Below, one piece after another: positions 783 through 61,103 of a stretch of DNA of 64,000 nt. The stretch lies in NCBI GenBank assembly GCA_903855135.1, contig CAINYB010000006.1:29631-93630 (forward strand), read 5' to 3'. A program made the position numbers and the translations under genes. How positions within the stretch are numbered: the first letter of the stretch is position 1; every line of letters begins with the position of its first letter. Under the pieces are notes generated by a model. That model was not told the origin of the DNA. It saw nothing but the letters and a program-made list of their open reading frames with translations, and made no database searches. The DNA is from an uncultured bacterium. Lineage in GTDB: Bacteria; Patescibacteriota; Patescibacteriia; UBA1558; GWA2-36-10.

Positions 783-804
783 GTCCCCGCGTACGCGGGG
801 AAGA
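783..804 (-). terminator. GC-rich hairpin (tccccgcg-tac-gcgggga) downstream of the FG-GAP/LDT gene; exact 20-nt copy of 50321-50340
   Basis: Perfect 8-bp GC stem in AT-rich background immediately 3' of a minus-strand stop; identical sequence recurs at 50321-50340. Confidence 0.6.
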
Positions 805-3821: not shown

Positions 3822-6567
3822 GACAATGTTTATATTTTTTACCAGAGCCACAAAAACAAAGATCATTGCGACCAATTTTATGACCGCTAGCATCTTTTGG
3901 TTTAGTAGCTAAAACTTGATTAGCTTGAGCCCTTTCCTCTACTTGCTGTTGAAAAGGACTAAAGCCTTGCTTTTGTTCATTGAATTGTCGCATTTGCTGA
4001 ACTTGGGGTGCGGCCATTTTACGAGCAATACCGACTTTAAAAATAGCATAAACTATTTGTTGGCGAATAGCATTAATCAAACTATTAAACAATATAAAAG
4101 CTTCACGTTTGTACTCTACTAGTGGATCACGCTGTCCGTAGCCCTGTAAGCCAATACCGGTACGTAATTTGTCCATGGCCGTCAAATGCTCTACCCATAA
4201 AGTATCCACGCTACGCAAGACTAAACCGCGCTCGATCATCTGCATCGGGGCGATTTGCTCATCATTAATATCAATCGAGCTGTTGATAGTTTCGGTTTGC
4301 TCCTGATATTTTGTTTTGGCTAAAGCCTGCAAATAAGTGATTAATTCTGTGCGAGCAACATGATCATGACTTTTTTCTACTTGCTCTAATAATTCTTTGA
4401 TTTTTGCAATCTCCTCTTCAGAAACAGTAAAAATATTTTTGATAGTTTCGATGATTTCTTGAGGATTGAAATCACCGTGCTCTTCTTTACCTAAAGTATG
4501 AAAAGAAACCACTTCTTCAATTTCTTTATTGATTTGTTCTAAAACAAAATTTTGTGCTAATTCTGCTTTAGCTGTTTTGTCATTGATGTCCGTAAAAATA
4601 GTCAAAAAGTTTTGACGTAGTTTATAAACTACTTGACGATGTTTATTTATCACATCATCATACTCGACTAAATGTTTACGAATATCAAAGTTATGACCTT
4701 CTACTTTTTTCTGAGCAGCTTCAATAGAATTAGAAATCATTTTATTTTCAATGGCGGTTTCTTCATCCAAACCCAAAGTAGTCATCAATGATTTGATTCT
4801 ATCAGAGCCGAAAATACGCATCAAATCATCATCCAAAGAAATATAAAATTGAGAAGAACCAGGATCACCCTGACGACCAGCACGTCCTCTGAGCTGATTG
4901 TCGATACGACGAGACTCATGTCTTTCGGTACCTAAAACATGCAAGCCACCTAAAGCTTTTATTTCTTCGTGTTTATCTTTATCAAAAGGTATACCACCCA
5001 AAACAATGTCCACACCTCTACCAGCCATATTGGTCGCTACCGTAACAGCACCTTTTTTACCTGCCTGTGCTAAAATTTCAGCCTCTTTAGCGTGCTGTTT
5101 AGCATTTAAAAGACTAAAAGGAATACCAGTTTTTTCTAGCATTGCTGCTAGCTCTTCATTTTTTTCGATAGAAACTGTACCGACTAGCACCGGCTGACCA
5201 GCCTGATGTCGCTCTTCGATTTCTTTGACAATAGCCTTGAGTTTACCGCGATAAGATTTATAAATACGATCTTTTTTATCATTTCTGACAAAAGGCTTAT
5301 TACCCGGCACTACTGTCACATCTAAGCTATAGATTTTAGCCATTTCTTCGGCTTCAGTTTCGGCTGTACCAGTCATACCAGCTAGCTTGTCATACATTCT
5401 AAAATAATTTTGGAAAGTAATGGTGGCCAAAGTCATGCTTTCTTTTTGAACTGATACTCCTTCTTTGGCTTCGATGGCTTGATGTAAGCCCTCAGAATAT
5501 CTACGACCTTCCATCATACGGCCAGTAAATTCATCGATGATGATAACTTCATTATTTTTCACCACATAATCTCTGTCTATCTGAAATAAAGTTTTCGCAC
5601 GCAAAGCTTGCTCCAAGTGATGAATAGTGCTTAAACCATGACTTTCATAAATATTATCAACGTTGAGTAATTCTTCCATTTTTTTCACACCAGCTTCTGT
5701 CAAAGTAGCCGTGCGCATCTTTTCATCGATATTATAATGCTCATCTGCTTGTAAAACATTGACTAGCTGAGAGAACTGTTGATATTGAGCAGCTGATTCT
5801 TCGGCTGGTGCGGAAATAATAAGTGGAGTTCTAGCTTCATCGATCAAAATACTATCGACTTCATCGACAATAGCATAGTGCAAACCACGTTGCGCTTGTT
5901 CGTCTATGCTTTGCGCCATATTATCACGCAAGTAGTCAAAACCAAACTCATTATTAGTACCATAAGTAATATCAGCATTATAGGCTTCTTTTCTGGTCAC
6001 TGACTGTAAATAATCAGTCACCACTTTGACACCAGCATCTCGTGTCTGATCATCTTGAGTGTCAGCTGCTTGTTTATTATAAATAAAAGAAGCATCGTGC
6101 TGAATCACACCGATACTCAAACCTAAGAAATCATAAATTTGGCCCATCCAAGTAGCATCACGTTTAGCTAAATAGTCATTGACGGTCACGACATGCACAC
6201 CTTTGCCTTCTAAAGCATTTAAATAAACAGCTAAAGTAGCGGTCAAAGTCTTACCTTCACCAGTTTTCATTTCCGCGATTTGACCTTGATGTAAAACCAT
6301 GCCGCCTAATAACTGCACATCAAAATGTCTTTGCTTCAAAGTACGAAAAGCAGCTAATTTGACTAAAGCAAAAGCTGGCACTAATAGCTCTTCTAAATTA
6401 GCACCGGTTTGGGCTTGAGTTTTTAATTCAAGTGATTTAGTTTTTAATTCTTCATCAGATAAATCTTGCCAAGCTTGTTCTTGCTTGTTTATTTCTTCAA
6501 TCTGTGGATTTAATTTATCTAAAAAACGTTGGTTGGCATCGCCGAAAATTTTTTGTATCCAGGACAT
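3811..6567 (-). CDS. secA: Preprotein translocase ATPase SecA
   Basis: 918 aa; DEAD-like motor motifs (KTGEGKTL, DEVDSILIDEARTPLIIS); C-terminal zinc finger CFCGSGKKYKHCHG. Confidence 0.95.
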   Translation of the reverse strand: MSWIQKIFGDANQRFLDKLNPQIEEINKQEQAWQDLSDEELKTKSLELKTQAQTGANLEELLVPAFALVKLAAFRTLKQRHFDVQLLGGMVLHQGQIAEMKTGEGKTLTATLAVYLNALEGKGVHVVTVNDYLAKRDATWMGQIYDFLGLSIGVIQHDASFIYNKQAADTQDDQTRDAGVKVVTDYLQSVTRKEAYNADITYGTNNEFGFDYLRDNMAQSIDEQAQRGLHYAIVDEVDSILIDEARTPLIISAPAEESAAQYQQFSQLVNVLQADEHYNIDEKMRTATLTEAGVKKMEELLNVDNIYESHGLSTIHHLEQALRAKTLFQIDRDYVVKNNEVIIIDEFTGRMMEGRRYSEGLHQAIEAKEGVSVQKESMTLATITFQNYFRMYDKLAGMTGTAETEAEEMAKIYSLDVTVVPGNKPFVRNDKKDRIYKSYRGKLKAIVKEIEERHQAGQPVLVGTVSIEKNEELAAMLEKTGIPFSLLNAKQHAKEAEILAQAGKKGAVTVATNMAGRGVDIVLGGIPFDKDKHEEIKALGGLHVLGTERHESRRIDNQLRGRAGRQGDPGSSQFYISLDDDLMRIFGSDRIKSLMTTLGLDEETAIENKMISNSIEAAQKKVEGHNFDIRKHLVEYDDVINKHRQVVYKLRQNFLTIFTDINDKTAKAELAQNFVLEQINKEIEEVVSFHTLGKEEHGDFNPQEIIETIKNIFTVSEEEIAKIKELLEQVEKSHDHVARTELITYLQALAKTKYQEQTETINSSIDINDEQIAPMQMIERGLVLRSVDTLWVEHLTAMDKLRTGIGLQGYGQRDPLVEYKREAFILFNSLINAIRQQIVYAIFKVGIARKMAAPQVQQMRQFNEQKQGFSPFQQQVEERAQANQVLATKPKDASGHKIGRNDLCFCGSGKKYKHCHGK

Positions 6568-6937: not shown

Positions 6938-7030
6938 AGCTTTTTATTGTTCACTCGCCCTGTGGGCGATTAATTAATTACTTAATTACACTTTAAATAT
7001 ACCAAAAAGAGCCCAAAAAATCAATACCAA

Positions 7031-7055
7031 AAAACTGCTTAAATTAAGCAGTTTT
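7031..7055 (-). terminator. Hairpin aaaactgcttaa-a-ttaagcagtttt followed by a T-tract on the minus strand (alaS terminator)
   Basis: 12-bp perfect stem 22 nt after the alaS stop; run of U in the minus-strand transcript. Confidence 0.6.
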
Positions 7056-8846: not shown

Positions 8847-8868
8847 AAAATCATCATTATTATCTCGT

Positions 8869-8888
8869 ATCTCCGCTAACGCGGAGAT
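8869..8888 (-). terminator. GC hairpin (atctccgc-taac-gcggagat), first of a tandem pair
   Basis: Downstream of the membrane protein gene 8952..9551; second hairpin at 8911-8932 (cacacccgc-gtca-gcgggtgtg). Confidence 0.55.
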
Positions 8889-8951
8889 AGATCTAAGCCA
8901 CTTATAGTTCCACACCCGCGTCAGCGGGTGTGATCTAAATGGCGTATTAAT

Positions 8952-11247: not shown

Positions 11248-11276
11248 AAAACACCCCCGCGTCGCGGGGGTGTTTT
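11248..11276 (-). terminator. GC hairpin aaaacacccccgcg-tc-gcgggggtgtttt
   Basis: 13-bp stem followed by U-run on the minus-strand RNA; 3' of the phosphorylase gene. Confidence 0.6.
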
Positions 11277-16021: not shown

Positions 16022-16079
16022 AAAATTTGTTACACTTTGACATAATTATAACCTATTCCGCCAAAATATAAAAGTTTTC

Positions 16080-16250
16080 ACCCCTCCCATCCTCCCCTTC
16101 GTAAGGGGAGGAGTTATAATCAAGATGTTTTGTTGTTTTCTCCCCCTTGCGAAGGGGGAGATACAGAGGGGGTCAAAAAACACCCCAGGATAAACCCGGG
16201 GCGTTCTGATAATAAATTCACTTGAGTTTTCTCCGCCGTAGGCGGAGAAA
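16080..16250 (-). repeat. Tandem cluster of 3-4 GC-rich palindromic units between the sigma-like gene and the split ATPase locus
   Basis: cctcccctt-cgt-aaggggagg; tctccccctt-gcg-aagggggaga; cccc(a)gg..ccgggg; ttctccgcc-gta-ggcggagaa. All in a 170-nt intergenic gap; the spurious 69-aa track ORF 16046..16255 is made of these. Confidence 0.6.
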
Positions 16251-16258
16251 ATCAAATC

Positions 16259-17362: not shown

Positions 17363-17425
17363 ATATGTATGTGTTTATAAATTCCCCTAGAGAATAACAT
17401 ATTTCTAAAAAAAAGTCAAGGCAAA

Positions 17426-17486
17426 ATACCCCCTCTGCCGCTGAAGCGTCTTCTCCCCCTAAATTAGGGGGAGATATAGAGGGGGT
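17426..17486 (-). repeat. Nested GC palindrome: outer stem aataccccctct/agagggggtatt enclosing hairpin tctcccccta-aatt-agggggaga
   Basis: 12-bp outer stem enclosing a 9-bp inner hairpin; the inner unit recurs at 22864-22886 and the outer 5' arm recurs reverse-complemented at 22913-22930. Confidence 0.55.
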
Positions 17487-17510
17487 ATTTCTTTAATTTA
17501 TTGGCTAATA

Positions 17511-21750: not shown

Positions 21751-21820
21751 CTCGACTCCTCCTCGGCTACGCTCGGAGTCGCTCGCGGTCTGTCGACCAA
21801 ATTCATATAAAATCAATGAT

Positions 21821-21838
21821 CCCCGGCGGATGCCGGGG
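21821..21838. terminator. Bidirectional GC hairpin ccccggcg-ga-tgccgggg with flanking T/A runs; exact copy at 22896-22913
   Basis: Follows the tRNA on the plus strand (then ttttatt) and follows the stop of minus-strand gene 21853..22782. Confidence 0.6.
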
Positions 21839-21852
21839 ATTTTATTATTTCT

Positions 21853-22782: not shown

Positions 22783-22814
22783 ACAATTTTGTTTTAGATT
22801 GATTATTTATTTAG

Positions 22815-22930
22815 TACCCCCTCCTCTTCGAGCCTTGAGGCTCTTCTGAGCCGAAACGGTCGGTCTCCCCCTAAATTGGGGGGAGAAGGCGCGTTCCCCG
22901 GCGGATGCCGGGGAAGCGGCAGAAGGGGTA
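22815..22930 (-). repeat. Composite mosaic of GC-rich palindromic units (BIME-like) between dnaX and the membrane protein gene
   Basis: Contains gagcc-ttga-ggctc, tctcccccta-aatt-ggggggaga (copy of 17452-17474), ccccggcggatgccgggg (copy of 21821-21838) and an outer arm gcggcagaaggggta that is the reverse complement of taccccctctgccgc at 17428-17442. Confidence 0.6.
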
Positions 22931-34351: not shown

Positions 34352-34398
34352 AAGCTAAAAGCTTGCCTATATTATAGCATAATAACACAAAAAAAATA

Positions 34399-34425
34399 AA
34401 CTACCCACCAGCGGCGGGTAGTTTA
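34399..34425 (-). terminator. Hairpin aaactacccacc-agc-ggcgggtagttt plus T-run
   Basis: Downstream of the DUF4012 gene stop. Confidence 0.5.
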
Positions 34426-35514
34426 TTTTTGATAGCAGTGTGTAATTATTTCTTGCGCCATTTTTTCCCAAGAGTATCTAGCCAACACTGCATTGCTATT
34501 ACTCAATAAAGATTGTTTTAAATTATCATCGCTGATGATTTGCTCTAGCTTATGTAATAAGTCTTCTTTATTTTTCGGATCAAAGTATAAAACCGAGTCA
34601 GCTAAAATCTCCGGCAGACAAGAAGCTGATGATGATAAAACTGGCGTCTGATAAGCTAAAGCTTCGAGTGGTGGTAAACCAAAACCTTCATAAAGCGAAG
34701 GAAAAATATAAGCTGTTGCTTGCTGATAAAAAGAAGCTAATTTTTTATCAGGGATAAAACCAGCAAAAACCACATGCTGTCCAGCAGTTTTTTCTAGCTG
34801 TTGGTAAAAATAGTTATGATCCCCTACTAAAACTAAATAAAAATCTGGATGAGTTTTTAAAAATTTAGCAAAAACTGTTAATAAAAATTCTAAATTTTTA
34901 TGAGGATAAGCATTACCCACATAAAGAAAAAATTTCTCCGGTAAATCATCATTGATTTCTGGCGTGGCTTTGATAGGTGTCAAACCTTCATAAATAACTT
35001 TTATTTTTTCAGCTTGCTTTGGTGATAATTTAAAATAATTTTTGATATCATCAGCCGTAAATTGTGAGACCGCGATTATCTTCTCTGCTCTTTTGATAGC
35101 TAATCTGATGGTCAACTGATAAGCTAAACGTTTAAAAATAAAAATGAAACGATTTAAAGTACTAGTGCGAATACTAGGAAACTTGGTCATAATCAAATCA
35201 TGGATAGTGACGATAAATTTTCCTCGATAAAAAATCGGTACATTAAAATGAGGAAAATGCACTAAATCTGGTTTTAATTTTTTTAATATCGATGGCAAAA
35301 AAATTTGTTCTTGCCATGAATACCAATGATATGGACAAATTTTCCAAGAAAAATTAGCCGGCAATTCCGGCAAATCTGAACTTAATGTTTTTATTAAAAT
35401 AATATATTGATTTTGTGCATCAAATTTAGCTAAATTTAATAAAAGCTGTTGGTTATAACGACCTAAGCCACCATATTTTGGACCAAAAATTCTAAGATCT
35501 AAAACGATGCGCAT
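34423..35514 (-). CDS. GT4-family glycosyltransferase
   Basis: EX7E region FPSLYEGFGLPPLEALA; start taken at MRIVLDLRIF. Confidence 0.75.
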   Translation of the reverse strand: MRIVLDLRIFGPKYGGLGRYNQQLLLNLAKFDAQNQYIILIKTLSSDLPELPANFSWKICPYHWYSWQEQIFLPSILKKLKPDLVHFPHFNVPIFYRGKFIVTIHDLIMTKFPSIRTSTLNRFIFIFKRLAYQLTIRLAIKRAEKIIAVSQFTADDIKNYFKLSPKQAEKIKVIYEGLTPIKATPEINDDLPEKFFLYVGNAYPHKNLEFLLTVFAKFLKTHPDFYLVLVGDHNYFYQQLEKTAGQHVVFAGFIPDKKLASFYQQATAYIFPSLYEGFGLPPLEALAYQTPVLSSSASCLPEILADSVLYFDPKNKEDLLHKLEQIISDDNLKQSLLSNSNAVLARYSWEKMAQEIITHCYQK

Positions 35515-39150: not shown

Positions 39151-39633
39151 AAGGCTTAAATTAGCCTCATAAGCCGAATTCTGTTCTCCAGCAAGCTGGA
39201 GTGATGATCATCTATCTAGGACTATGATTGCCCATAGCCTCAAGCAAGCTACCCGATCCCGCTTAGCGGGACCCTATTTGCTCTTGCACCGAATAGAGTT
39301 TAGCTCTTTTAGCTTGTCACCAAGCTAACGGGTCAGCTCATTATCTGACCATTTCACCCTTATCCTTCGATTCGGCCTTGCGGTCTCACTCAGGAAGGAA
39401 TACTCTCTGTTCAACTTGTCCTGACCACTTAGTCGCCCAAATGGCCGGTTGTCGTTAACAACTATCCTCCATTTAAAAATGGAAAATGGTGTTCGGACTT
39501 TATCCTCCCTCCTTCGCTGTCGCTACGCGCCAGCTACGGACGGGCAGGCCCCGCTAAATTGTAGGGCTTGCCGTACGAAGCTCAAACGCAGTGAGAGCGA
39601 AGGACGGCGATCATCTCGGCTAATTTAAACCTT
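39151..39633 (-). ncRNA. rnpB: RNase P RNA (bacterial type), not in ORF track
   Basis: Minus-strand transcript contains GGAGGAUAAAGUCCGAACACC (CR-I/P4 5' strand), AAGGGUGAAAUGGUCAGAUAAUGAGCUGACC (CR-II/P10.1-P12 pattern) and ACAGAAUUCGGCUUAU (CR-IV/P4 3' strand). P4 shows compensatory GG to AA and CC to UU changes relative to E. coli. P1 helix GGUUUAAAUUAGCC/GGCUAAUUUAAGCC closes the molecule. Lies in a 750-nt ORF-free gap of elevated GC. Confidence 0.8.
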
Positions 39634-39675: not shown

Positions 39676-39701
39676 GGCCCTACTAAGGATTTAGCAGGGC
39701 C
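39676..39701 (-). terminator. Hairpin ggccct(a)ctaa-ggat-ttag(c)agggcc directly after the small ORF stop
   Basis: 10-bp stem with one internal mismatch, 1 nt after the TAA at 39703-39705. Confidence 0.5.
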
Positions 39702-42425: not shown

Positions 42426-42476
42426 AAAAAATTTTGATTTTTAAAATTATTTGTTATTTTTATCCAATAAACGCGT

Positions 42477-42504
42477 ATTTCCGCCCCGCGAAGCGGGGCG
42501 GAAT
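42477..42504 (-). terminator. GC hairpin atttccgccccgc-gaa-gcggggcggaat (contains GCGAAGC mini-hairpin core)
   Basis: 12-bp GC stem downstream of greA. Confidence 0.6.
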
Positions 42505-42558
42505 ATATAACGCACTCTATCCCTGTATTGTGCCAAAAAATTGAAATTTTAGCAAATA

Positions 42559-48247: not shown

Positions 48248-48267
48248 TTCCCCGCGTCCGCGGGGAA
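48248..48267 (-). terminator. GC hairpin ttccccgcg-tc-cgcggggaa
   Basis: Perfect 9-bp stem after the proS stop. Confidence 0.55.
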
Positions 48268-50258: not shown

Positions 50259-50279
50259 TTCCCCGCCTACAGCGGAGAA
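50259..50279 (-). terminator. Hairpin that pairs fully only in the minus-strand RNA (ucuccgc-ugu-aggcgggga with G.U)
   Basis: Plus-strand version has C.A mismatches and the minus-strand version has G.U wobbles, implying RNA-level function on minus transcripts; a second hairpin at 50319-50345 is a copy of 783-804. Confidence 0.5.
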
Positions 50280-50365
50280 TATTTAATTATCTTGTTACTA
50301 AGTCCACTTTTGACCTCTGGTCCCCGCGTACGCGGGGAAGGCGGGGGCAATATCAACTTAAAGCT

Positions 50366-51532
50366 TTATTGCTCTATAACGTAAGTGCCTAAATATAAAT
50401 ATTTACTATTTGGTGAAAACTCTAGCTCTTTGGCAATTTTAGTAGTGGGCAAAGCTTTATTTTGCCAATTCGCTCCTCCATCTTTAGTAAAGTAAAAAGC
50501 ATTATTGGTACCATAGTAAATCTCTTGACCATTCAAAGGATTAACAGTCACTGAATAAATAGAGGCCTTATTTTTGCTAGTCAAAAGCTTATATTGCTCC
50601 CAATGGTCGCCAGTAAACCTAAAAATACCAATTTTATTCGCATAAAGCAAGTTGTCTTTGGTGGTCAAATCTACTGTCACATCAGACAAAATTTTCACGC
50701 CACTAACTTTTGACATCAATTTTTTATCATCAGTAATTACCGCCCTGGTAAAAGTTTTATCATTTTCCGTCACATTTTCTAATTGATAAAGTGGCAAAGG
50801 CATAACATCTTCCCAATTTGCTCCAGCATCCATGCTACGCCAGACACCCTGGCTTTCTAAAGCGACATACATGATATTACTATCACTGTGATTCATGATT
50901 AAAATTTCACTAATTTTACTATCAAAACGATGATAAACAGACCAAGACAATCCTTTGTCAACACTACGCAATAAAGCACCTTCTTTAGTGCCGGCAAAAA
51001 TAATCTCTGGATTTTGATAATTGATAGCCAAACTAGAAATATATTGGCCAGCTCGTGGCTCAAAATATAAATCAGTCCAAGTACGAGCGCAATCTTCACT
51101 CTTTAAAATTTTATTATGAATCGCGGCATAAAGCTGACATTTATCTTTCGGATGAACAAATAAATCATTGACTGTGCCGCTATATGGCAAAGTATTTTCC
51201 CAGGAAGCGCCATAATTATAAGTATAATAAATACCACTGTCAGTCGTGCCGAGATAAATCGCTTTTTCATCTTGCGGATCTAGGGCGATCTTAGTGATGT
51301 TATTGGTAAAAGTTTTGGTAGCGGCTTCAACGTTAGCGATTTTATTTTTAGCTCCCCAAGTCTGACCAAAGTCAGTGCTGATAAAAAAGGCACTAGCTGA
51401 AGTAGCGTTGCTAGTATTACTACTCTTGACACTGATACAAGCCGATAAAAATAAAGGCAAGCATAACAAGCTTAAATAAAAAATTAAATATTTTCCGTTA
51501 GGTCTTGAGCTCGCCGAAAGATGTTTTGTCAT
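50366..51532 (-). CDS. BNR/Asp-box repeat beta-propeller lipoprotein (sialidase/Ycf48-like fold)
   Basis: Lipobox LFLSAC; six SxDxGxTW-type repeats (STDFGQTW, YNYGASWEN, SEDCARTW, SVDKGLSW, SMDAGANW, TKDGGANW). Start taken at MTKHL, a 4-nt overlap with holB. Confidence 0.6.
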   Translation of the reverse strand: MTKHLSASSRPNGKYLIFYLSLLCLPLFLSACISVKSSNTSNATSASAFFISTDFGQTWGAKNKIANVEAATKTFTNNITKIALDPQDEKAIYLGTTDSGIYYTYNYGASWENTLPYSGTVNDLFVHPKDKCQLYAAIHNKILKSEDCARTWTDLYFEPRAGQYISSLAINYQNPEIIFAGTKEGALLRSVDKGLSWSVYHRFDSKISEILIMNHSDSNIMYVALESQGVWRSMDAGANWEDVMPLPLYQLENVTENDKTFTRAVITDDKKLMSKVSGVKILSDVTVDLTTKDNLLYANKIGIFRFTGDHWEQYKLLTSKNKASIYSVTVNPLNGQEIYYGTNNAFYFTKDGGANWQNKALPTTKIAKELEFSPNSKYLYLGTYVIEQ

Positions 51533-52548: not shown

Positions 52549-52590
52549 TGACTAAAATATAACATTTTCAGAACTAAAAATCAACCAGCT

Positions 52591-55644: not shown

Positions 55645-55724
55645 ACTTTTGTCATTCTGAATTCATTTCAGAATCTTTTATATTAAATCACCAGACCCTG
55701 AAAAAATTTCAGGGTGACATAAAA

Positions 55725-59052: not shown

Positions 59053-59077
59053 AAACCGCCGCCTTCGGCGGCGGTTT
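59053..59077 (-). terminator. GC hairpin aaaccgccgcc-ttc-ggcggcggttt
   Basis: Perfect 11-bp stem downstream of gene 59123..60235. Confidence 0.6.
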
Positions 59078-60304: not shown

Positions 60305-60330
60305 AAAAAACACCCCCGTCAGGGGGTGTT
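60305..60330 (-). terminator. GC hairpin aaaaacacccccg-tca-gggggtgttt
   Basis: Downstream of the RGG/zinc-ribbon gene. Confidence 0.6.
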
Positions 60331-60341
60331 TCATATAAACT

Positions 60342-60821
60342 TTATTTTTTCTTTTTAGCTACTTTTTTAACTTCTTTTTTAGCAGCTTTAGGTTTTTCTT
60401 CTACTTCATCAAATACTATGTCCATATCTTTTTCTTTAGTCTTTGCTTTAGCAGGAGCTTTACTAGCTTGTAAAAGATTTAAAATTTGATCCAGCTTTTT
60501 GTTTAAACCATTGATAGCCTCGGTAACTTGACTATTATCATGACCGCCAGCAGAAGAACGACTTGATCTAGTATCGTTTTTCTTAAAACAATCATTACAA
60601 TAAACTGGTTTACCACTTGTTGGACGAAATGGTACTTCACAATCAGAGCCACAACCATCGCATACTGCTTGATGCATTTCTGCTGGGCGACTATCTCGAT
60701 CTCGACGATCTCCGCCAAAACCTCTATCTCTGCCACCGCCAAAACCACCACGGTTAGAGCCTCTAAAACCGCCTCTATCTCTGCCACCGCCAGGTCTTCT
60801 ATCTCGATTAAAATTTCCCAT
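60342..60821 (-). CDS. RGG/RG-rich protein with CxxC-x17-CxxC zinc ribbon and lysine-rich C-tail
   Basis: N-terminal RGG-type low-complexity region; zinc ribbon VCDGCGSDCEVPFRPTSGKPVYCNDCF clearly homologous to the tail of ORF 12786..14516; C-terminal KAKTKEK...KKKK. Confidence 0.5.
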   Translation of the reverse strand: MGNFNRDRRPGGGRDRGGFRGSNRGGFGGGRDRGFGGDRRDRDSRPAEMHQAVCDGCGSDCEVPFRPTSGKPVYCNDCFKKNDTRSSRSSAGGHDNSQVTEAINGLNKKLDQILNLLQASKAPAKAKTKEKDMDIVFDEVEEKPKAAKKEVKKVAKKKK

Positions 60822-60846
60822 AAAGTTGTCCGTCTATGATATTAAT

Positions 60847-60869
60847 TTTCCGCCTGACGGCGGAAAATA
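60847..60869 (-). terminator. GC hairpin ttttccgcc-tgac-ggcggaaaa
   Basis: Perfect 9-bp stem in the 280-nt gap after gene 61104..63011. Confidence 0.55.
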
Positions 60870-61103
60870 ACTATCTAGATTAATTTAATTATTAAACTTA
60901 AGTATTACAATAACACATATTGACAAATAAAGCAAGTTTTATTCTAGTCAATTATTTAATAAATCCGCCCACCTGCTTTTCCCACTTCTATTCATAAAAG
61001 TCAATAATATAATTCCCTCATCAATTATATTAAACTTAACAAGCCGCCATAAGAAATCTAAAGCGCCAACCAATTCAAGTTAGCGCTTTATTTTAACTAT
61101 ATT

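Follow-up and report, generated by a model that had tools for sequence, protein, structure and literature searches.

The window analysed here, a stretch of 64,000 nt from contig CAINYB010000006.1 whose own numbering is used throughout, belongs to a chromosome of the Patescibacteria, or candidate phyla radiation (CPR), and carries in its intergenic gaps a set of short GC-rich palindromes, among them a 20-mer, TCCCCGCGTACGCGGGGAAG, that is repeated exactly at 784-803 and 50321-50340 and forms the subject of this analysis. The window has a GC content of 35%, the GC skew of its plus strand is steadily negative at about -0.14, and all of its sizeable open reading frames (ORFs) lie on the minus strand. 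These include the housekeeping genes secA, alaS, frr, rseP, proS, mreBCD, pbp2 and greA together with secDF, dnaX, lepA, murJ and genes for glycosyltransferases, and 5.3% of the window is intergenic. Among the window ORFs scanned for domains there is no transposase, recombinase or cas gene. A further contig, L126, derives from the same genome (100% identical over 12.2 kb); with it, 73 kb of this genome were read, and these encode neither a recombinase nor a transposase, the lists of flanking genes included. Judged by the ribosome recycling factor (RRF), the product of frr, the best matches among named genomes are metagenome-assembled genomes of Patescibacteria (Parcubacteria and Komeilibacteria type) at 62-66% identity, and closer relatives are present in public assemblies.

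Both exact copies lie 3' of minus-strand genes, as the first-pass annotation of the window had reported: copy 1 is found 32 nt past the stop codon of an L,D-transpeptidase gene (stop at 834), and copy 2 is found 27 nt past that of a BNR-repeat gene (stop at 50366). The identity is one base longer than was first described, as a G precedes the 20-mer at both 783 and 50320 (783-803 equals 50320-50340), and both 20-mers are followed on the 3' side by [A/G]CG. A third locus at 48248-48267, which reads TTCCCCGCGTCCGCGGGGAA on the plus strand, has two mismatches to the 20-mer and lies 22 nt past a stop codon, within a segment of about 65 nt between orf94 and proS. The genes on either side of all three copies are co-directional. 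Read on the minus strand, the unit of copy 1 (780-806) consists of CGTC (806-803), T, TCCCCGC (801-795), GTAC (794-791), GCGGGGA (790-784) and CAC, with a -10-like box, TGGTATAAT, downstream of it, and copy 2 (50317-50343) consists of CGCC, T, TCCCCGC, GTAC, GCGGGGA and CCAG. The two share a stem of 7 bp, with T opposite C at the would-be outermost pair. Copy 3, TTCCCCGC-GGAC-GCGGGGAA on the same strand, has a stem of 8 bp with TT/AA at its base, no such head, and the tail AGC.

Hairpin population and shared subfamilies

The first-pass annotation had named a calculation of random expectation as what could overturn its reading of the repeat. Dinucleotide-preserving shuffles gave 0.00 expected matches to the 20-mer, and a strict scan for hairpins (perfect stem of at least 7 bp, at least five G-C pairs, loop of 3-8 nt) returned 20 perfect GC hairpins against 0.5 expected per simulated window, so that a chance origin of the repeat and the hairpins is ruled out. 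Nineteen of these 20 are intergenic (p about 1e-23), and by our own count from folds one hairpin or more is present in 17 of the 24 intergenic gaps that measure 25 nt or longer. The motifs GCGGGG (six occurrences) and CCCCGCG (five) in the 64 kb are all explained by six CCCCGC/GCGGGG hairpins. We also considered a DNA uptake sequence and rejected it, k-mer counts showing no excess beyond the catalogued hairpins.

Two layouts can be told apart when the hairpins are read on the transcribed strand. About seven consist of an A run, a stem and a U run and are textbook intrinsic terminators, and about 17 consist of a T run, a C-rich arm, a loop, a G-rich arm and an A run. The 20-mer belongs to this second, T-stem-A class, whose rough consensus is TTCCCCGC(C)-loop-(G)GCGGGGAA and whose members either follow a stop codon at a distance of 7-55 nt or precede a start codon by 17-42 nt. 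The sister hairpins have stems of 8-11 bp with TT..AA or TTT..AAA at the base and loops of 3-5 nt, those of the TCTCCCCC subfamily ranging from 3 to 7 nt. Copies 1-3 are singletons or are paired with a hairpin of another type, at spacings of 30-97 nt. The role as terminators that had been suggested for the 20-mer class finds no support in its flanks, since the 8 nt past the stem hold one T on the minus strand and none on the plus strand in copies 1 and 2; with no U tail on either strand, the T-stem-A hairpins are unlikely to be intrinsic terminators.

Three subfamilies can be recognised. CCCCGC-G(T/G)AC-GCGGGG has three copies in the window, namely those described above. CCCCGGC-ATCC-GCCGGGG has two (at 21819 and 22894) and is also found in L119, L120 and L130, which are stretches from relatives. 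TCTCCCCC..GGGGGAGA has three, each within a three-way structure closed by an outer stem, ACCCCCUCU/AGAGGGGGU. Copies are also found in L111, a metagenome contig from the same study as L120 that has no genes in common with the window: a 29-nt sequence, CCCGCCTTCCCCGCGTACGCGGGGACCAG, comprising copy 2 and its flanks, is identical at L111:648-676 in a non-homologous context, and the composite sequence 17444-17490 is 87% identical over 47 nt to L111:2620-2665. By a rough estimate, agreement in stem, loop and three flank bases would arise in some pair among about 27 independent hairpins with a probability below 1e-3. The sharing of loops and unpaired flanks is not predicted by selection for stem stability, and the sequences thus support a dispersed family that arose by copying rather than by convergence. 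We consider it likely that this is a REP-like dispersed family (REP, repetitive extragenic palindromic), and the dispersed palindromic family proposed in the first-pass annotation is upheld in this form; the other hairpins that it cited do exist in the window.

The composites were observed four times, at 17425-17492, 22806-22926, 16078-16172 (minus strand) and L111:2620-2700, in each case as the outer stem ACCCCCUCU/AGAGGGGGU around a UCUCCCCC..GGGGGAGA hairpin plus at least one variable hairpin. Their fold z-scores range from -4 to -7. They belong to no Rfam family, permissive scans giving sub-threshold noise only; at the gathering threshold Rfam matched only RNase P RNA (39157-39557, minus strand) and one tRNA-Gln in the window, and a known RNA family was rejected as an identification on that basis.

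A scan of metagenomes for the exact 20-mer, which is biased by design, collected 31 non-CRISPR matches; six of them have a (C/T)GTC head, about one being expected, and CCA(G) tails occur in several. Single 20-mer matches in GC-rich contigs are compatible with chance. One metagenome contig, L110 (48% GC, with flagellar rod genes), holds four copies of ATCCCCGCGTACGCGGGGAT in 4.6 kb, along with the palindromic repeat families AAGCTTTTGGAAAAGCTT and TAGGGGCG..CGCCCCTA, and in this unrelated bacterium the palindrome is again a dispersed repeat. We did not accept homology of the 20-mer in such unrelated bacteria, as its recurrence may be a coincidence among very many REP-like families. A single-cell Patescibacteria contig, L010, carries ATCCCGCGTCAAGCGCGGGAT at 1046-1066 and its reverse complement at 3864-3884, a pair 2.8 kb apart that brackets a segment adjoining frr.

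Hairpins are gained, lost and swapped between close relatives

Syntenic stretches from relatives were fetched through the RRF protein cluster and the L,D-transpeptidase. RRF identity to the window is 96-97% for L115, L118-L125, L128 and L129, 90% for L114 and L131, and 71% for the outgroup L116, and L130 falls in an 85% cluster. Protein identity to the window is 80-100% in the close set (at least 82% for all but spoU) and 49-94% in L116. The 19 syntenic kb of L116 contain no GC hairpin where the window has about eight. The hairpin family is lineage-specific and absent from this more distant relative. The frr neighbourhoods of the GTDB relatives with 62-66% RRF identity also lack such hairpins, which is uninformative beyond showing the same lineage specificity.

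Within the close set, hairpins are gained, lost, swapped in place, loop-flipped and nested. The gap between the BNR-repeat gene and frr, which holds copy 2 in the window, measures 15-23 nt in L116, L118, L120, L121, L123-L125, L128 and L129. In the window, L114, L115, L119 and L130 it measures 106-177 nt and holds two or three hairpins; L118 and L119 encode an identical RRF protein, yet one has the short gap and the other the long one. The junction of orf94 and proS is 0-4 nt in eight relatives, and the insert of about 65 nt with copy 3 is found in the window and L130 only. There the arms TTCCCCG and CGG(G/C)GAA are conserved around different centres, the core being TTCCCCG-CGGACG-CGGGGAA in the window and TTCCCCG-GCATCCGC-CGGCGAA in L130. 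At the site of copy 1, L131 has another hairpin, TTTCCTCCGCC-TAT-AGCGGAGGAAA, between conserved flanks. Compared with L131, the window further shows a clean insertion of 21 nt, TCGCCCACAGGGCGAGTGAAC, at 6955-6975 and a clean insertion of about 39 nt in the T2SSE-T2SSF gap, and the gap that holds the hairpin 2256-2276 measures 22 nt in L131 and is free of hairpins there. Two insertions, of 56 nt and 77 nt, are private to L115, and both bring hairpins with them. Loops occur in both orientations: CGC-TTC-GCG in the window (42479-42503) faces CGC-GAA-GCG in L120 and L124, where GAA is on the coding strand, and CGC-TGTAG-GCG in the window (50259-50279) faces CGC-CTACG-GCG in L115. One insertion is nested, a hairpin of L114, TACCCCGC-TGAC-GCGGGGTA, having a 28-nt insert in its loop in L120 and L124.

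Two gaps of the window were seen to vary in length well beyond single hairpins. The rnhA-holB gap (52549-52590) is an indel hot spot, being 42 nt in the window, L114, L116 and L118, 83-253 nt in L115, L120-L125, L129 and L130, and 1410 nt in L119, where an extra gene lies on the reverse strand. The pbp2-greA gap (42426-42558) extends to 641 nt in L120 (17619-18259) and L124, between two hairpins, and holds short called ORFs there, one of 75 aa in either relative and another of 37 aa in L120. The distal hairpin alone is kept in the window and the proximal one alone in L118, which suggests deletions bounded by hairpins.

RNA fold, DNA site and likeness to CGTC-type REPs

The first-pass annotation held that the hairpins probably act at the RNA level and proposed comparing G.U with C.A positions. 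With a detector that treats G.T and A.C equally, applied to the hairpins of the window and its relatives, the intergenic hairpins have 16 G.U against 4 A.C pairs on the coding strand (p 0.006), and the ORF-internal ones have 5 against 9. Leaving out two RNase P RNA hairpins and one mis-binned ORF hairpin gives 11 against 2. As a test of the 20-mer class this asymmetry was set aside as underpowered: the T-stem-A palindromes are nearly all perfectly Watson-Crick paired, and the comparison thus has little strand signal of its own to offer on them. The best single piece of evidence for an RNA fold of the 20-mer element is the orthologue of copy 2 in L115, TTCTCTGTGTATGCGGAGA. Its head is CGTC, and its five substitutions preserve the structure: there is one compensatory change from C-G to U-A, and at three positions C has become U, so that a G.U pair remains on the coding strand where the other strand would have A.C. 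The loop flips and the perfect symmetry of the palindromes, in turn, point to DNA-level processes in their origin and upkeep. Hairpin template switching, in the part of its description drawn on here (PMC8794818), creates perfect inverted repeats, loop inversions and apparent compensatory changes alike. We regard a main role at the RNA level as tentative, slightly short of an even call.

Palindromes of REP type are familiar from Proteobacteria and a small number of other phyla. Among them, the sections of Di Nocera, De Gregorio and Rocco (2013; PMC3733652) used here define a superfamily of CGTC-tagged REPs by an unpaired CGTC head (sometimes TGTC or CCTC), a stem of 8-9 bp whose first two pairs are A/T, a loop of 4-5 nt and an unpaired 3-nt tail that is mostly CCA, the units being arranged mostly as head-to-head dimers. 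According to the same sections, these REPs number from tens to thousands of copies, are intergenic near the 3' ends of ORFs between unidirectional or convergent genes, show G.U pairs that suggest transcription, have no associated transposase, and include Neisseria dRS3 and Rickettsia RPE-4 and RPE-6, with dRS3 and RPE-6 placed in family CGTC-1. As far as that description goes, the palindromes of the window match it in part in the CGTC-type unpaired head, the GC stem with outer A/T pairs and the CCA-like tail; they are alike in their 4-nt loop, in their unit of about 20 nt with conserved terminal arms and a variable centre, and in their position near the 3' end of the upstream ORF between genes of the same direction; they also share the uneven, lineage-specific spread, the lack of a transposase, and G.U pairs of the kind taken there as a sign of transcription. 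Copies 1-3 all have loops within the 4-5 nt of the definition and lie in intergenic sequence near an ORF 3' end, and the CCA(G) tail is present in copy 2 and in the L111 copy. The outline TTCCCC-N8-GGGGAA of the window elements is very close to that of dRS3, ATTCCC-N8-GGGAAT (PMC1797815). Patescibacteria or CPR are not among the host groups named in the sections of PMC3733652 used here, and the literature searched yielded no account of such elements in Patescibacteria, nor one of terminators. The likeness to the GTAG-tagged, RAYT-mobilised REP, BIME and REPIN elements of enterobacteria and Pseudomonas is more general, in that these too are short, GC-rich, imperfect extragenic palindromes of many copies and strain-variable presence; the GTAG head and the REPIN doublet are absent at the window copies, and no RAYT/Y1 transposase domain was found in the window ORFs scanned or in the flanking gene lists over the 73 kb. 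We call the elements REP-like, of CGTC type, since the fit is incomplete in stem, heads and dimers, and we do not claim every GC hairpin of the window for the superfamily; membership in the strict sense could fall either way.

The main rival explanation is that the palindromes are sites at the DNA level. A dimeric protein or a site-specific recombinase would recognise them in the double-stranded or cruciform state, and they would serve recombination, integration or supercoiling rather than act in RNA, which is what has been proposed for Neisseria dRS3. The perfect Watson-Crick pairing of almost all T-stem-A members makes them strand-symmetric, as such sites would be, and the same reading accommodates terminal arms that are kept around centres that vary (window against L130), matching the dRS3 outline, loops that are free to flip in orientation, and palindromes that border the indel hot spots at pbp2-greA, rnhA-holB and BNR-frr. 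We consider it improbable, given that the 73 kb encode no enzyme of the required kind, that the L115 orthologue pairs through G.U and so preserves an RNA fold only, and that the stems of the subfamilies are too different for a single DNA-binding specificity.

Rather than a family, the hairpins could be ordinary terminators or structural hairpins that evolved independently and are alike through favoured C-rich and G-rich stems. Like intrinsic terminators they are GC stem-loops after stop codons with a C-rich 5' arm and a G-rich 3' arm, the CCCCGC/GCGGGG cores recur, flanked by A and U, in the true terminators of the window, and the site of copy 1 keeps a hairpin in L131 even though the hairpin itself has been replaced, pointing to selection for structure. 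Unlike terminators, they have T before and A after the stem, lack a U run past it on both strands, and in several cases stand 17-42 nt before start codons or inside operons. Convergence on stem stability, moreover, does not predict identity across loop and unpaired flanks over 21-29 nt, and the chance estimate of below 1e-3, which is rough and covers all pairs together, speaks against it as well; we hold this reading to be quite improbable. A resemblance to type I-E CRISPR repeats also deserves mention, since the stem CCCCGC..GCGGGG is of that type and the 20-mer is the core of a 28-29-nt repeat, GGCTTCCCCGCGTACGCGGGGATCGACC, in arrays of 61-nt period in the metagenome contigs L091 and L112; solitary repeats of this kind, or a degenerate mini-array, might be suspected from the 62-nt spacing of the hairpins at 50321 and 50259. 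These two contigs come from unrelated organisms of 63-65% GC, neither a periodic array nor spacers nor a cas gene is present in the window, its other paired hairpins stand 30-97 nt apart and differ in sequence, and the flanks of 50321 and 50259 are unlike, so that orphan CRISPR-like repeats are hardly credible here.

The explanation that we favour, and hold to be fairly probable, is that of lineage-specific, REP-like dispersed palindromes that are transcribed together with their genes and probably form a barrier at RNA ends rather than a terminator. The 20-mer would be the core of an extragenic palindrome of REP type of about 25 nt, reading on the minus strand CG(T/C)C, T, a TCCCCGC/GCGGGGA stem, a GTAC loop and a CCA or CAC tail, and would represent one subfamily of the T-stem-A hairpins that fill most intergenic gaps. 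From the placement between genes of the same strand, we infer that the hairpins are transcribed with the upstream gene and fold in its mRNA. Most likely, the folded hairpin would act as a barrier to exonucleases that sets and stabilises transcript ends, at 3' ends past stop codons and at some 5' ends about 20 nt before start codons. REPs of E. coli are thought to stabilise upstream mRNA against 3' exonucleases. Spread and renewal would take place at the DNA level by a copy process that requires no enzyme encoded by the element, for which hairpin-mediated template switching, gene conversion or an enzyme supplied in trans from elsewhere in the genome are candidates. To our knowledge, there is no known mobilising enzyme for CGTC-type REPs.

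Several points weigh against this explanation. In the exact copies the stem has 7 bp and a T.C mismatch where the CGTC definition asks for 8-9 bp, most of the roughly 17 T-stem-A hairpins are headless, and an exact CGTC head is found in only two or three hairpins of the window, which makes the CGTC assignment of the whole population loose. Head-to-head dimers, predominant in the described CGTC families, were not seen among the window copies. The counts, three for the subfamily and about 17 for the wider class, cover 73 kb of this genome. Nearly all G.U pairs are located in canonical terminators, from which the signal for RNA-level action thus mostly comes, and the G-rich coding strand biases the G.U test mildly, and the G-over-C mutational skew of the strand could inflate the asymmetry; the RNA-level claim of the first-pass annotation is partly supported, by the count of 16 against 4 and by the L115 orthologue. 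At the insertions no target-site duplications or common ends are recognisable, and several are accompanied by changes in the adjoining sequence, so that the import of whole alleles by recombination could explain part of the turnover. Finally, every statement on function, as well as that on the mode of spread, is inferred.

It is possible, if on the unlikely side, that we are looking at an actively turning-over REP population that lacks a transposase in a symbiont-type (CPR) genome of roughly 1 Mb. If so, this lineage would be a natural system for asking how CGTC-type REPs multiply, and a CPR bacterium may mark most of its transcript ends by hairpins with no U tail. The candidate processes are strand switching templated by the hairpins, gene conversion, and the action in trans of a recombinase such as is suspected for dRS3. 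As it stands, a minimal AT-rich genome gives most of its scarce intergenic space to hairpins. The most useful aspect is the series of filled and empty sites among relatives in public metagenomes, graded at 71%, 85%, 90%, 96-97% and 100% RRF identity, in which single elements appear, vanish or change their core; through it, both the mechanism of gain and the effects on messages can be tested by comparison and metatranscriptomics. For annotation there is a warning that GC hairpins in such genomes are not to be scored automatically as terminators.

Other hairpins and elements

The remaining hairpins, all given on the minus strand, can be placed by position. Following copy 1, TTTCCCGCC-GTA-GGCGGGAAA at 2256-2276 stands 42 nt before the ATG of the L,D-transpeptidase gene, and TTTCCTCCGC-TAC-GCGGAGGAAA at 2353-2375 lies 13 nt past a stop codon. 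The 21-nt insertion at 6955-6975 is a hairpin TCGCCC-ACA-GGGCGA plus GTGAAC. Two hairpins occupy the DUF2238-alaS gap (8868-8932), CACACCCGC-TGAC-GCGGGTGTG and TATCTCCGC-GTTA-GCGGAGATA, and both are kept in L131. Past a gene similar to those of sigma factors, four consecutive hairpins at 16078-16251 include TTTTCTCCGCC-TAC-GGCGGAGAAAA, a composite with the outer stem CCCCCUCU/GGGAGGGG around two TC(T/C)CCCC hairpins, and a canonical terminator (16177-16207) with three G.U pairs. The composite at 17425-17492 has the outer stem AUACCCCCUCU/AGAGGGGGUAU around UCUCCCCCUAAUUUAGGGGGAGA, whose CGTC head is read on the plus strand at 17447-17450. The hairpin ATCCCCGGC-ATCC-GCCGGGGAT (21819-21840) lies where a minus-strand gene and the tRNA-Gln gene converge, and the composite past dnaX (22806-22926) contains within an outer stem TTCCCCGGC-ATCC-GCCGGGGAA at 22894-22915 and CGCC-TTCTCCCCCCAATTTAGGGGGAGA at 22864-22891. 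A hairpin of dRS3-like outline, ATTTTCCGCC-GTCA-GGCGGAAAAT, is found at 60845-60868, 23 nt before an ATG. By contrast, AAAACACCCCCGC-GAC-GCGGGGGTGTTTT at 11248-11276 is a canonical terminator, as are those at 7031-7055, 34392-34430, 59053-59077, 60308-60331 and 61059-61090 and the one at 16177-16207, each with an A run, a stem and a U run.

Two further hairpins had been singled out in the first-pass annotation. The one upstream of frr, TTCTCCGC-TGTAG-GCGGGGAA at 50259-50279, lies 19 nt before the ATG and is fully paired on the minus strand only, through G.U pairs, exactly as had been observed. In the pbp2-greA gap, TTCCGCCCCGC-TTC-GCGGGGCGGAA (42479-42503) has a stem of 11 bp and on the plus strand includes the heptamer GCGAAGC, which had been highlighted as a hyper-stable core at 42487-42493. 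The heptamer is present, one base further on at 42488-42494; the special meaning given to it did not hold up, as the strand that carries it is not the transcribed one, the loop has the opposite orientation in L120 and L124, and the heptamer occurs five times in the window against 5.2 expected. With no enrichment and with the loop inverted in relatives, nothing indicates selection for the mini-hairpin.

A handful of start regions was looked at by eye rather than counted systematically: the sequences upstream of the ATG of frr and of the genes starting at 60821, 2213 and 6937 are A/T-rich and have no GGAGG-like ribosome-binding site. A separate element of 80-110 nt, resembling a miniature inverted-repeat transposable element, has the ends ATGTCACCCTGAA...CAGAATGACAAAA and the inverted termini TGTCA/TGACA. 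It was seen in the window at 55645-55724 (minus strand) and at L126:20979-21088, in the pfkB-PTAC and GT2-CtpB gaps, the second copy having a nested insert of 33 nt. Close relatives lack the element at both sites, with 1-18 nt there in L114, L116 and L118-L125 and 11 nt in L131. A hairpin GGCCCTGCTAA-ATCC-TTAGTAGGGCC at 39676-39701 (minus strand), followed by a T-rich stretch, lies upstream of the gene for RNase P RNA, and it is kept at L118:20474-20499 with one compensating G.U change.

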